64,000 nucleotides of DNA, from positions 256,001-320,000 of the forward strand of contig CAWCKJ010000003.1 of NCBI GenBank assembly GCA_963796105.1. Direction: 5' to 3'. Made by a program: the position numbers and the translations under genes. Of the stretch, positions 6,097-9,858 are shown piece after piece (positions within the stretch are counted from its first letter, which is position 1; each line of letters opens with the position of its first letter). The notes below the pieces were generated by a model that was not told the origin of the DNA, did no database searches, and worked only from the letters and a program-made list of their open reading frames with translations. The stretch comes from a candidate division FCPU426 bacterium (GTDB lineage Bacteria > Oederibacteriota > Muellerivitia > Muellerivitales > Muellerivitaceae).

Positions 6097-6321
<225 letters not shown>

Positions 6322-6331
6322 CGAGGATTAA

Positions 6332-6661
6332 ATGGAAACCATCAATGCTCAAGAAATTATCCAGGAAATGGTCCGGCGGATCGTTGAGAAATTCGATCCG
6401 GTTCAAATAATTCTTTTCGGTTCCTATGCGCGTGGAACTGCCGGGCCGGACAGTGACGTGGACCTGTTGGTGGTCATGCCAATTGACAATTCCCACAAGG
6501 AAAAAAACCTCGAAGTCAGCCTGGAATTGCGTGCAATGGGTTTGGCAAAAGATGTTTTTGTGGTGACCCCGGAAGAAGTCCAAAAGTACCGCGATATCGT
6601 GGGAAGCATTATTAAGACGGCTGTTCACGAAGGGAAAATTATCTATGAGCGTGCCGCCTGA
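6332..6661 (+). CDS. Minimal nucleotidyltransferase (MNT) antitoxin
   Basis: IILFGSYARG...DSDVDLLVV motif. Confidence 0.93.
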   Translation: METINAQEIIQEMVRRIVEKFDPVQIILFGSYARGTAGPDSDVDLLVVMPIDNSHKEKNLEVSLELRAMGLAKDVFVVTPEEVQKYRDIVGSIIKTAVHEGKIIYERAA

Positions 6662-7058
6662 ACAAATATATTTAGTCCGCCAATGGATTGAAAAGGCGGA
6701 AAGCGACTATAGGAATTTCCAGAACACGCTCAAAATGGACAAAGATTGTCCCTTCGATACCGTTTGCTTCCACACCCAACAATGTGCTGAAAAATACCTT
6801 AAAGCCCGCTTGGTTTATCTTTCCATCGATTTTCCCAAGATTCATGACATTTCGGAGATCATCAAACTCTTTCCGCCCGGCCTTGGAATCCCCCTAACCC
6901 CCGCAGATCAAGAAAAGTTAACGAGGTATGCCTGGATGGGACGCTATCCTGGTAATTGGGAACCGATGAACCGTCAAGACGCCGAGGAAACGGCAGCCTT
7001 GGCCACCAAGGTTCGAACTGCTATCCGGGCAAGCTTTCCAAAGGAAATTTTGAATTAA
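6645..7058 (+). CDS. HEPN-domain protein (MNT-HEPN pair)
   Basis: WIEKAESD, CFHTQQCAEKYLKA, FPKIHDI, RYP; overlaps the MNT gene. Confidence 0.92.
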   Translation: MSVPPEQIYLVRQWIEKAESDYRNFQNTLKMDKDCPFDTVCFHTQQCAEKYLKARLVYLSIDFPKIHDISEIIKLFPPGLGIPLTPADQEKLTRYAWMGRYPGNWEPMNRQDAEETAALATKVRTAIRASFPKEILN

Positions 7059-7082
7059 ACCTTTTTTGAAAGTGGGCGCGAA

Positions 7083-7424
7083 ATGAAGGGAACAATGAAA
7101 CATAAGGAATCCTTGCCGGGGGGAGCGCTTCAAGAACATGCCCAAATTCCGAAAAAGAAACGACCTGATATTTACGCCGCTTTGAAACACCCGGACCCCC
7201 ACATCAATCTCGCGCGGAATATTCTGAACTTGCGACATAAGCACGGTTTCACCCAGATTGAGCTTGCGTAACGGTCAGGAGTTACCAGCCGAACCATCCA
7301 GAACATTGAAAATGTAAATAGCGGGTACAAACCAACCCTTGACGTTATTACGGGGCTTGCCAAGGCGCTCGAGGTAAAGCCGGAAGATTTGATAAAAACC
7401 GTGGACTTGGCTGAAAATTTTTAA
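7083..7424 (+). pseudogene. XRE/Cro-family HTH regulator with in-frame TAA at 7269-7271
   Basis: LRHKHGFTQIELA*RSGVTSRTIQNIEN...KPTLDVITGLAKALEV continues in frame to TAA at 7422-7424. Confidence 0.85.
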
Positions 7425-7463
7425 TTTGAACAAAAAAGATTTATGTTTTTAAAAGGGAAATTT

Positions 7464-7937
7464 ATGACGGTAATGACTGATTTCGATTGGTTTAAATCTG
7501 GATTTGATTTAGAGATTCAGCTTATGGAGGAATACGTAAAAGGAGTAGAACCTCTAATACAAAAAGAATTAAACGACTTTAAGGGAAAAATTGATGCTGA
7601 AGCGACAAAGATTAGCGATCCGACCTTTAAAGATGATTTTTATGAATTTCATTCTGGAGATTATTCAAATCTTAACGAGGGATTTCCAAATATTCTTAAT
7701 GAGTCCGCTCTGATTTCAATAATGGCGATGTTTGAAAAATATTTAAATTTCTCTTGTGCTTTTTTGGCTCAAAAAAGGCAAACCAAAATGGAATTAAAAG
7801 ATATCCAAGGCAAAGGCGTTTATAGGGCGAAAGTTTATTTGAGCAAAGTAATAGGGCTAAATTTAGAAACCGTAAATTTTTACTGGGACGACTTATCTTT
7901 GATTGGGGAGATTAGAAACGCGTGCGTCCAGATATGA
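7464..7937 (+). CDS. AT-rich hypothetical protein, possibly a truncated HEPN-like domain
   Basis: Helical ORF that ends abruptly at IRNACVQI*, where an R-x4-H motif would be expected. Confidence 0.5.
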   Translation: MTVMTDFDWFKSGFDLEIQLMEEYVKGVEPLIQKELNDFKGKIDAEATKISDPTFKDDFYEFHSGDYSNLNEGFPNILNESALISIMAMFEKYLNFSCAFLAQKRQTKMELKDIQGKGVYRAKVYLSKVIGLNLETVNFYWDDLSLIGEIRNACVQI

Positions 7938-8023
7938 CAGGTGCTTGTCGACTCAATGGATTAGGCATAAAATGAAATTAATTTTGAAGATCAAAAGACA
8001 TTGATTTTAATCCGGGGGCTTAA

Positions 8024-8340
8024 GTGCTAGTTGAAAAGTCAGTTGTGGACAATTTGGTAAATCAAATCGTGGAAGCGGTCCACCCGCTTCGCATAATCCT
8101 TTTCGGATCGGCGGTCAGGGGGGATATGGGCCGGATAGCGATATTGACCTTTTGATTGTCATGCCGGAAGGAACTGACCGGGACAAGGTCAGCAAATTGC
8201 TTTATTGCCAGGTAACCGAACTTAAGGTGGCGTTTGATATGGTGGTTGCCACTCCTGATGTTCTTGAGAAATATAAAAACAATTGCGCCCTGGTTTACAA
8301 ATGGGCACTTAAAGATGGCCGTGAAGTTTATGCCGCCTGA
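8024..8340 (+). pseudogene. Second MNT antitoxin, frameshifted
   Basis: VEAVHPLRIILFGSAVRGDMG in one frame and DSDIDLLIVMP...GREVYAA in another (1-nt loss near 8130); followed only by the MPPE stub of a HEPN partner. Confidence 0.85.
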
Positions 8341-8431: not shown

Positions 8432-9685
8432 TTAGGTTTTCGGCTCCTGCATAAGGAACCCCACCAACTTGGCGGTTAAGCCGCCTTTCAAGAACCTTTG
8501 GGCGGCCTGGGCCGTCTCCAAGGCCTTTTGCCCCCCGGTCACGGACAAGTGGATCTCATAAGCCTCCCCGCCCTTGTGTTTGACCTTAATATCGGGCCCC
8601 AAACCCTTCCAAGCCTCCGCCATGGGGTCTTTTTCCTTATTGGAAGCCTTTTTAGTGTCAAAATCCCTAGCTTCATTCCCGTCCTTGACCCATTCGACCA
8701 TCTTTTTGGCTAAAACTTCCGGCATTCTGTTATCAATGACGATTTCAAGGGTTTCTTCAATCAAATCAGGGTCCGCCAATTTAGCCAATATCAGCAAAAT
8801 GGACTCGGTTATCAAATATTCGGGCTCTTCTTTGCCCAGCTGCTGGGCAGGATCGTCTCCAGTCTCTGCCTGGGTGCCCAGCGGCTGGGCATTTGTAACA
8901 CCGGTATCGATCTTTGCGCCCAGAGGCTGGGCAGTATCGGTCCCAGTCTCGGCTTGGGTGCCCAGCGGCTGGGCAGTTTTAACCCCGGTATCGGCCTCCG
9001 CGCCCAGCGGCTGGGCATGGTAATCCTCTGGAAGAAGGGCTTTGTCCTTGTTCAACATAATCGAAATCCTGGCGTCCTCAGTAAGGAGACTTGTCAATAT
9101 CAAAGCATTATAAACCTTGCCTTTGGACAAGCCCAACAGCTTGGCAAGCTGTCTTTGGGACAATTTCGGATTGGCCTTATGTTCCACTTCAATCGCTACA
9201 TCCAAATCCCACCAATCCATTTCAACAAGGTTATTGTCCATAAAGGCGGAAAAATGGGTTTTTTCGGGGGGAATATCCACGATTTCACATTTCAAGGCCT
9301 CAAACCCGGCCAGCTTTGCCCCTTCCAGGCGCCTGTGGCCCCCGATCACCATATATTCGAAACCCATTTCAGCGAGCGTTTCCTTGGGTACTACCTGTCC
9401 CTCATATTCCGGTTTTCGTAGGGAAGCTTTTTCTTCCGCCGTCAGGGGACGGACTTTTAGCAGGGTTTGCTGGCCTATGGCTTTCAGGGAATCGGCCATT
9501 TCCCCGATGCAACCAGGCCTTATTAGATGCCGTGGCTGATCGATATTGGGCATTAGCTTTTTTATGGGAATCTTTTTCACCTGAACCCGGGTCTCCAATC
9601 CGGGTTCGTGGTTTGGTATCTTCTTTTTCGGGTTGGCGTCGGTCGATGCTGGATTGGGGGAAGAAGCTTTTGGATTTTTCGACAT
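8432..9685 (-). CDS. Orphan ParB/KorB-like CTPase-HTH protein with an internal 14-aa repeat insert
   Basis: PNIDQPR, IGGHRRLEGAK (GxRR motif), HTH SQRQLAKLLGLSKGKVYNAL; GGAGG RBS before ATG 9685; no parA adjacent. Confidence 0.88.
   Translation of the reverse strand: MSKNPKASSPNPASTDANPKKKIPNHEPGLETRVQVKKIPIKKLMPNIDQPRHLIRPGCIGEMADSLKAIGQQTLLKVRPLTAEEKASLRKPEYEGQVVPKETLAEMGFEYMVIGGHRRLEGAKLAGFEALKCEIVDIPPEKTHFSAFMDNNLVEMDWWDLDVAIEVEHKANPKLSQRQLAKLLGLSKGKVYNALILTSLLTEDARISIMLNKDKALLPEDYHAQPLGAEADTGVKTAQPLGTQAETGTDTAQPLGAKIDTGVTNAQPLGTQAETGDDPAQQLGKEEPEYLITESILLILAKLADPDLIEETLEIVIDNRMPEVLAKKMVEWVKDGNEARDFDTKKASNKEKDPMAEAWKGLGPDIKVKHKGGEAYEIHLSVTGGQKALETAQAAQRFLKGGLTAKLVGFLMQEPKT
8833..9017. 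repeat. Five 17-bp palindromes (consensus TGCCCAGCNGCTGGGCA) at 42-bp period inside parB
   Basis: Copies at 8833, 8875, 8917, 8959 and 9001; they encode AQPLG (x4) and AQQLG (x1). Confidence 0.95.
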
Positions 9686-9858
9686 AAGGAACCTCCAAAT
9701 AAATAGTTTTTGAGGGTTGAAAAACCCATCTGCGATGGAATTTTTCAACAGTCTCAGATTTGAGCCGCTTACGTATCCAAAAATAATCCCGACCCTTCGA
9801 ATGGGTCAATAGGAAAATGTATTCCACGGTATATAATGCGAAACTAATCCAGCTTTAA

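Follow-up and report, generated by a model that had tools for sequence, protein, structure and literature searches.

A solitary ParB-like gene of an Oederibacteriota bacterium carries a phased palindrome array that its own product very probably reads

Why a solitary ParB-like gene should hold a row of evenly spaced palindromes within its own coding sequence is the question raised by a 64,000-nucleotide stretch of DNA (the window) from a candidate division FCPU426 bacterium of the family Muellerivitaceae, phylum Oederibacteriota (assembly GCA_963796105.1, contig CAWCKJ010000003.1, positions 256,001 to 320,000). We consider it likely that the five palindromes would be binding and loading sites of the ParB-like protein that the gene encodes, which would clamp the DNA under nucleotide control, slide along it, likely damp its own expression, and also load at four matching intergenic sites. 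In what follows, G000 denotes the genome of the window and C numbers its contigs, other G numbers are genomes of relatives, and L numbers are loci.

Five phased palindromes in the coding sequence of a ParB-like gene

8432-9685, minus strand: orphan ParB-like gene of 417 amino acids (open reading frame with ribosome-binding site; ParB/Noc matches)
9685 (ATG) and 9692-9696 (GGAGG), minus strand: start of this gene, as read from the open reading frame and ribosome-binding site
8833-9017, no strand: row of five odd-centred 17-bp palindromes repeated every 42 bp, in frame with the gene and within a linker predicted to be disordered; putative self-loading sites
8833-8849, no strand: palindrome 1, perfect (TGCCCAGCTGCTGGGCA); its offset from the Y-x-ITE motif (-31) is typical of the family
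8875-8891, no strand: palindrome 2, perfect, 0 mismatches to TGCCCAGCNGCTGGGCA
8917-8933, no strand: palindrome 3, 2 mismatches to TGCCCAGCNGCTGGGCA
8959-8975, no strand: palindrome 4, perfect, 0 mismatches to TGCCCAGCNGCTGGGCA
9001-9017, no strand: palindrome 5, 1 mismatch to TGCCCAGCNGCTGGGCA

The palindromes start at 8833, 8875, 8917, 8959 and 9001 (0, 0, 2, 0 and 1 mismatches), and the exact 42-bp spacing given in the preliminary description is correct; the distance of the array from the start codon is 670-850 bp. With as many as 3 mismatches allowed, TGCCCAGCNGCTGGGCA has six matches in the window against 0.22 expected, a number reached in none of 100 shuffles. The 25-bp linkers alternate between two types, as had also been noted, with 19/25 identical positions between the first and third and 18/25 between the second and fourth, compared to 10/25 between the first and second; this alternation forms an 84-bp higher-order repeat with 82% identity. 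The peptide encoded by the array consists of AQPLG four times plus AQQLG. The array had been described as an in-frame insert just after the helix-turn-helix (HTH), which is right as to the frame but not as to the position, as the AlphaFold2 model places a further helix (residues 203-215) between the HTH and the array-coded peptide (residues 216-287, predicted to be disordered). Two DNA runs cover the region patchily; in them, one 151-base contig, which may share the sampling campaign, matches 8893-9043 without any differences.

Besides the array, a sixth perfect 17-bp palindrome of another sequence (ACAGCTTGGCAAGCTGT) is found at 9136-9152, in the HTH-coding part of the gene and in the same frame.

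Relatives keep the symmetry and change the sequence

Starting from 20 homologous proteins, which led to 3 genome loci and 21 metagenome loci, matches were found in 21 of the 99 genomes of the phylum and in 17 of the 30 other genomes of the window's own family, with up to 14 per genome (counted as matches, not genes). The profile matched 142 open reading frames, of which 111 non-identical ones spanned the HTH. A divergent G000 relative (L009) without the GxxR motif and without a site was set aside, and the remaining 110 rows were analysed.

The linker that follows the HTH contains a perfect 17-bp palindrome in 72 of these 110 members, one with at most one mismatch in 94, and one with at most two in 104. 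As a control, none of 564 same-length windows of the N-terminal domain held a perfect palindrome, and synonymous recoding of the linkers yielded a mean of 0.34 and a maximum of 2 perfect palindromes in 200 runs. Given the same peptides, only 0.11 of the 71 perfect sites in frame 2 would be expected, and these 71 sites comprise 60 different half-sites. The encoded peptides are dissimilar (e.g. AQPLG, YNSVI, ESSRF, and LAPRK); what the family sites have in common is their frame and offset (mostly -28, -31, or -34), not their sequence. Furthermore, 107 of 109 additional proteins, available as peptides only, have a palindrome-compatible linker pentapeptide, compared to about 51% by chance. Selection acting on the symmetry of the DNA, with the peptide repeat as a by-product, is therefore strongly supported, in line with what had been proposed for the AQPLG repeat, and the relatives show the opposite of a peptide that is kept while the symmetry is lost.

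A second G000 family member, outside the 110-row set, also has a perfect site of its own (AGTTAGACTGTCTAACT) in the same frame and linker; this long gene (L256, C3:513318-516080) encodes a membrane segment. Broken family genes were seen at L189 (G050), L187 (G048), and L013 (G067); one of them retains four sites at 42 bp, and L013 has a frameshift at its own site.

HTH residues track the bases of the site

9092-9163, minus strand: HTH, residues 175-198, with the covarying R178 (9152-9154), K188 (9122-9124), and Y192

Covariation was analysed in the 93 rows in which the frame-2 site has no more than one mismatch (17 of the 110 were dropped), or 89 rows after removal of near-duplicates. With tree distance removed, columns 178, 188, and 192, all of them within the HTH, are the three of about 190 that best track half-site similarity in the 89 rows (z = 7.8, 6.3, and 4.7, respectively, relative to 167 other columns); among windows of 8 residues, the recognition helix scores best. 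Of the 48 rows with R178, 46 have G at base 2 (otherwise 5/40); Q188 is accompanied by A at base 3 in all 17 rows (otherwise 2/72), and R188 by G at base 3 in all 8 rows (otherwise 1/81). On a tree built without the HTH or the linker, these residue and base states change 7-13 times. Independent pairs differ in the same direction for R178-G2 (6.1/7), Q188-A3 (4.8/5), and R188-G3 (4.9/5), and almost never in the opposite one. The 109 additional proteins, for which bases were inferred from the peptide, agree for Q188-A3 (17/20 vs. 0/23) and R178-G2 (10/10 vs. 6/29); for R188-G3 they offer one unambiguous case, with G3 in 5 of 42 non-Arg rows. The distant long member L062 has both the KVYNA helix and the exact site of the window gene.

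Position 188 aligns with the arginine of the ParB 'KSR' motif, R173 of Caulobacter, which is reported to bond a parS guanine, while the equivalent glutamine in Noc bonds an adenine of the Noc-binding site (NBS) (PMC7383237). Going by this alignment, position 188 is the published R-G/Q-A specificity switch of ParB and Noc. Since the bases of the site covary with HTH residues, we regard it as very probable that the palindrome is read by the HTH of its own gene. The homolog comparison suggested in the preliminary description has thus returned intragenic palindromes at the same place that covary with DNA-binding residues, and the claim that the gene encodes its own operator array is very likely correct.

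Helical phasing and mixed intergenic arrays

Within genes, the spacing is 42 bp in 25 of 27 spacings from 18 multi-site genes. This distance equals both 14 codons and 4 helical turns and is likely favoured for that reason. Outside the gene, a scan of G000 for TGCCCAGCNGCTGGGCA identified four sites, three perfect and one with a single mismatch, each of which adjoins a sister palindrome at 41, 42, or 52 bp. The exact site of the window is found in 3 of the 31 family genomes, and for each of the short-type genes of G047, G049, and G052, two copies of its own site lie outside the gene.

These extragenic copies lie in intergenic arrays in which the sites of different paralogs are mixed. Another near-palindrome lies within 250 bp of 20 of the 23 extragenic seeds, and 18 further perfect palindromes were counted against 0.44 expected. 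The helical phasing that had been described for the array extends to these regions, where 46 intergenic spacings follow a 10.5-bp period (R 0.73, mean phase 0.1 bp). Of 54 neighbours, 35 differ by no more than one base from a half-site known in the family (background 16/358). These array statistics are non-independent, as several arrays are mutual copies and the seeds were chosen by family patterns. The array sites match in part paralogs of the same genome and in part genes seen in other genomes only; G051 (93% complete) has array-type sites, and a family gene was not found there. A AAATAAGG-like box comes after the site in 33 of 93 genes, where it encodes K-N-K-G, and several array sites are flanked by it as well. 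The notion of a self-contained module fails on the recurrence of the same site at four extragenic places in mixed arrays.

Intergenic arrays with up to 7 different family-type palindromes in helical phase were seen at L152, L154, L165, L174, L175, L177, L181, L191, and L199, and some mixed arrays have AAAATAAGGG boxes on either side.

Protein architecture and a proposed loading mechanism

9230-9586, minus strand: ParB/Srx nucleoside triphosphate (NTP)-binding domain, residues 34-152 (NIDQPR, GGHRR, MDNN; alignment to ParB/Spo0J structures)
8642-8818, minus strand: second half of the helical DNA-binding domain, residues 290-348 (predicted helices, resuming past the array)
8450-8620, minus strand: C-terminal two-strand-plus-helix domain, residues 356-412 (predicted local distance difference test score (pLDDT) about 43-66), with no membrane tail after it

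The NTP-binding domain, HTH, and helical bundle of the window protein are all modelled with confidence by AlphaFold2 (pLDDT >90 at about residues 291-340), and the C-terminal domain likely serves dimerisation, as in ParB. The protein matches ParB structures of the ParB/Spo0J/Noc group in a hidden Markov model (HMM) comparison (E 5e-16), and a Foldseek fold search matched Noc, ParB, and KorB, with Noc as the best hit. The Pfam ParB_N match (E 4e-5, score 23.9) is below the cut-off of 26.3, and the 35.6 bits for the Noc family model TIGR04285, with its cut-off of 315, do not place the protein in that family. Box I, GxxR (Box II), Box III, and the central HTH of a ParB-like clamp are all present, as is, at modest confidence, the C-terminal domain. 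The GHRR motif is intact as previously stated (GGHRR, residues 115-119, nucleotides 9329-9343), and the NTP pocket is kept across the family (G116 in 109/110, R119 in 109/110, and N151 in 110/110 members). The position of the GERR glutamate is often His or Gln; it is His in the window protein and in 59 of 110 members. No hydrophobic segment was detected by hydropathy scan, and the window protein is a soluble, tail-less family member.

Loading at a site followed by sliding has been demonstrated for ParB, KorB, VirB, and BisD according to the accounts in PMC10770331, PMC13768133, and PMC12409273. By analogy, a dimer of the window protein would bind the palindrome through R178, K188, and neighbouring residues, and binding of a nucleotide, probably cytidine triphosphate (CTP), would close the clamp. 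The closed clamp would slide along its own gene, likely limiting its own transcription, and five copies in phase may raise loading. The product would also load at the four matching sites in the mixed intergenic arrays, and the membrane-anchored majority of the long members would likely tether their own loci and the mixed arrays to the inner membrane, some of them perhaps by means of a VirB8-like domain akin to the resident conjugation machinery. Because the site is kept inside the reading frame, each gene would be a self-contained unit in which site and reader can change together. The array, DNA-level selection, base-for-residue covariation, 10.5-bp phasing, and the extragenic copies come from direct analysis; we infer dimer binding, clamp closure, and autorepression from the known clamps.

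Family distribution and membrane tails

Members of the family are chromosomal, stand alone, and are patchily distributed; some genomes hold about ten different paralogs. The neighbouring open reading frames, listed by eye, differ at almost every locus. Paralogs of the same genome nearly always differ in their site (9/9 in G047 and 10/10 in G044). No ParA Walker motif was found beside 109 family loci except for one short off-gene match, and the ParA-binding motif LG[RK]G[LM] is absent from the first 60 residues in all 111 rows. No shared terminal repeats or common end motif were detected in 87 upstream and 72 downstream flanks. In IMG/VR, none of 133 pattern matches was confirmed as a family member; 18 viral contigs contain the exact 17-mer in single copies, with family HMM scores of at most 7.3 bits. 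The plasmid collections yielded 19 weak ParB matches, none covering 80%, and no family member.

A simple hydropathy scan predicts a membrane segment in 43 of the 71 members of at least 450 amino acids. The tails of long members fall into several classes that are swapped among clades. The largest class (15/79) folds like DotI/IcmL, TcpC, and CagV, with a modelled NTF2-like fold behind the membrane segment (pLDDT 91) as in VirB8-like proteins. Foldseek gives IcmL/DotI/TcpC/CagV as best matches (E 3e-6, template-modelling score about 0.67), and the ten best named matches in the ESM Atlas belong to the same clan. In a six-frame search of G000 with the tail profile, the top hits were six open reading frames located after six VirB4-like genes (E 1e-4 to 0.6), and HHalign of this tail class against the resident type IV secretion system (T4SS) proteins after VirB4 gave a probability of 95.6. 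Pfam found only weak PDZ and TPR matches in the 49 of 79 tails searched, with neither VirB8 nor toxin domains, and a sequence search of the PDB with the tail profile returned nothing. Family genes and VirB4 occur together in 11 of 31 genomes, the family alone in 7, VirB4 alone in 2, and neither in 11 (Fisher p 0.025), an association weakened by kinship and assembly gaps.

A second tail class, seen in ten long members (e.g. L092, L132, and L135), has at its end a domain pair that weakly matches PDZ in place of the VirB8-like domain.

The window gene falls within a clade of short, soluble members (support 96), which is nested among long ones and in which multiple sites are common. It is a tail-less offshoot of a family of solitary 'site plus reader' genes that has undergone lineage-specific expansion.

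Locus and host genome

5870-9858, no strand: insert of about 4 kb between a tRNA-Arg gene and a phosphoglucomutase-family gene, with DUF433, an MNT-HEPN pair, broken genes, and the ParB-like gene

The ParB-like gene is the last gene of this chromosomal insert. The insert is missing from the same-genus genome G051, in which tRNA-Arg is followed directly by the phosphoglucomutase-family gene. No replicon was seen around the ParB-like gene in the insert, and no ParA-type KGGxGK[ST] motif was found near it, the sole match in the window lying about 45 kb away, so the earlier statement that no parA is nearby stands. A canonical parAB pair is present in G000 on contig C4, and its ParB carries the ParA-binding motif.

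Several further observations concern the surroundings and the host genome. Positions 6103-8340 of the insert hold a toxin-antitoxin-like cluster with DUF433, a nucleotidyltransferase-HEPN pair, a broken HTH gene, and a broken second nucleotidyltransferase gene. Relatives that have the HTH and helical bundle without the ParB NTP domain are located immediately downstream of tandem direct-repeat tracts in G000 (C4:724380, C2:127577, C4:1196524, C12:9472, C2:368832, and C12:331464); most have a predicted membrane segment, and they are candidate readers of the adjoining tracts. Six VirB4-like genes (C1, C5, C13, C14, and C16), each followed by a VirB8-like gene, point to several minimal conjugative elements, and one such region, on C14, has its own ParA-ParB pair. 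From about 42900 on C16, palindromic repeats with a 61-bp period resemble CRISPR, and their core has 55 copies genome-wide. A dispersed even palindrome (TGGAAAAATTAATTTTTCCA) occurs on several G000 contigs, and its inner arms are common to 22 perfect palindromes. IS21-like transposase pairs, identified by eye at L002, L003, L004, and L005, adjoin several palindrome-bearing repeat patches.

Weighing the self-loading reading and its alternatives

Several observations weigh against the reading that the gene's own product loads at its palindromes, or against parts of it. Six of the 110 members have no site at up to 2 mismatches, the inner bases 5-8 give no clear residue code, and a column outside the HTH, W159, likewise correlates with base 2 (r 0.32). 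The test of independent pairs reaches p<0.05 for R178 only (median 0.031), both tests for position 188 having 5 pairs and p 0.0625. With respect to the mechanism, hydrolysis may be slow because the GERR glutamate is replaced by His, and ParB-fold proteins can bind ATP or GTP, the base being unpredictable from sequence according to PMC12704722. Sliding KorB alone is reported to repress poorly without a locking partner (PMC13768133), which makes autorepression the weakest step. Since the window protein has no tail, the arguments on tethering and the T4SS apply to its relatives only, and G047 (90% complete) has 9 VirB8-like tail matches and no VirB4 hit. Finally, identical sites occur in 2 of 167 same-genome pairs compared to 9 of 2608 cross-genome pairs, revealing no extra avoidance of shared sites, and no terminal repeats or mobility genes were seen flanking the family genes.

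As to the purpose of self-loading, a conflict between selfish elements and decoy arrays or a domesticated membrane tether may be considered, and partition is unlikely. In the first case, the genes would be selfish one-gene elements with a product that is harmful, or hijacks the conjugation pore via the VirB8-like tail, unless parked on its own site, which would act as a DNA 'antidote'. The arrays would then be host decoy or immunity libraries of the sites of past and present members, and the soluble multi-site window gene a competitor or sponge. Such a conflict also needs self-binding and differs in purpose only; we hold it to be a tentative possibility. It would fit the scattered occurrence of solitary genes whose flanks are new at nearly every locus, the swapping of tails among clades, and, with the reservation that kin are not independent, the co-occurrence with VirB4. 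The arrays at L152, L154, L174, L191, and L199 contain sites with a reader found only in other genomes, and G051 has sites without a detected family gene, although such missing readers may be merely unassembled. However, none of the 49 tails searched with Pfam has a toxin domain, no transfer origin, relaxase, or terminal repeat was seen, shared sites are not avoided more within genomes than between them, and IMG/VR and the plasmid collections yielded no family members. A broader version, which we put forward as speculation, sees a class of one-gene mobile clamps that would write their own private address by a residue-for-base code, anchor the addressed DNA to the membrane, and connect it to the conjugation pore through a stolen VirB8-like domain; helically phased host libraries of addresses might then be decoys, hitch-hiking tags, or a memory of invaders.

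Doubtful, in our view, is a domesticated Noc-like organiser or regulator, whose several specificities would tether loci to the membrane or regulate array-adjacent genes, with the intragenic site as mere feedback. The predicted membrane segments of the long members are as this would require, the top fold match is with Noc, described in PMC12704722 and PMC10770331 as a DNA clamp that also binds the membrane, and the arrays are phased as if several proteins sit on one face. A domesticated role of this kind sits poorly with the lack of a match in 13 of the 30 other same-family genomes, one of them 99%-complete, with the fast turnover of positions and sites, and with pseudogenes (L187, L189, and one on G000 C8).

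The preliminary description had also offered a one-gene partition module, in which the array would be a parS centromere and the protein would segregate its DNA. The ParB fold and the phased palindromes are in its favour, and a parS site (parS-359) lies inside parB of Bacillus subtilis (PMC4442127). This module is very unlikely given that, one short off-gene match aside, neither ParA at the 109 loci nor the ParA-binding motif in the 111 rows was found, that the gene lies in a 4-kb chromosomal insert with no replicon seen, and that G000 already has a canonical parAB pair.

Still less probable is selection for a nucleic-acid structure (a messenger RNA hairpin, cruciform, or single-stranded nick site) that is not read by the HTH. 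Perfect symmetry does persist while the sequence changes, and L013 is frameshifted at its site, but structure alone predicts no link to HTH residues, whereas the observed link is strong and follows Arg-G and Gln-A chemistry; moreover, the symmetry reaches within one base of the centre and the copies are phased to the pitch of the duplex. An ordinary peptide-linker repeat with accidental symmetry, suggested by a predicted disordered linker expanded by an 84-bp duplication, is contradicted by the near-zero expectation from the same peptides and by the wholly different peptides of symmetric relatives, and can be dismissed.

Comparison with known ParB-type systems

The family shares with chromosomal ParB-parS the domain order (ParB/Srx, HTH, helical bundle, C-terminal domain), the GxxR motif, and the Box III Asn. 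A palindromic site, a site within the gene, already known from parS-359 (PMC4442127), and the same R/Q specificity position are further likenesses. Unlike parS, the site of the family is an odd-centred 17-mer that nearly every paralog has in a version of its own and that always sits at one place in the coding sequence of the DNA-binding domain, and many solitary paralogs occur per genome. A cognate parA, an N-terminal LG-R/K-GL motif, and the 16-bp parS consensus were not found, which separates the family from ParABS.

Noc resembles the family as an orphan ParB clamp, as its best structural match, and in the Gln-adenine contact at the R173-equivalent position (PMC7383237), and long relatives would likely share its DNA-to-membrane tether. 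In contrast to the single conserved specificity of Noc, the family is diverse in its sites, with predicted C-terminal transmembrane segments and swapped outer domains, and the window protein is anchorless. The membrane anchor of Noc is N-terminal and amphipathic.

KorB of RK2 and its operator OB are alike in the odd-centred palindrome, its dispersed copies, and the load-and-slide transcription control that is predicted here (PMC13768133). The operator TTTAGC(G/C)GCTAAA had been cited correctly (PMC13768133), but the core shared with the window site is probably a chance likeness, because AGC occupies positions 6-8 in only 6 of the 71 perfect sites found in the family. OB itself is a conserved 13-bp sequence, and KorB is described as working with IncC (ParA) and needing KorA or TrbA to repress well (PMC13768133), whereas the window site differs, no IncC/KorA/TrbA-type partner gene was found, and the gene lies in a chromosomal insert; it does not qualify as a KorB system. 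Shigella VirB (PMC10770331) and BisD of ICEclc (PMC12409273) are orphan ParB-like CTP clamps for gene control as well, and bisS is odd-centred and lies inside genes (PMC12409273). As far as these accounts go, their sites are in target promoters or other genes (inrR and ssb), not in their own gene, and no paralog-specific code is described. The VirB8-like T4SS proteins (DotI/IcmL, TcpC, CagV, and TraM) share fold and profile with one tail class of the long relatives; there, the domain is fused behind a ParB clamp and away from T4SS operons, and it is absent from the window protein.

The main text of a survey of the ParB-CTPase fold contains neither 'palindrom' nor 'transmembrane' (PMC12704722); its datasets may list family members. 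A literature search, with subscription journals and supplements outside its scope, found no paper on a self-encoded covarying site, ParB-VirB8 fusions, or mixed arrays.

Implications

As a natural library, the family offers about 60 matched pairs of reader and site, and a single gene suffices to read each of them. With it, the two-state switch of ParB and Noc is extended to a many-state code, which makes the evolution of HTH-DNA specificity directly testable; the family could also supply orthogonal ParB/parS-type labels for chromosome imaging. Orphan ParB proteins are described as common and mostly without known targets (PMC12704722), and the family provides a simple rule for finding sites. 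Finally, the fusions of ParB, membrane anchor, and conjugation domain, together with the mixed arrays, point to an unrecognised chromosome-membrane or host-parasite system.

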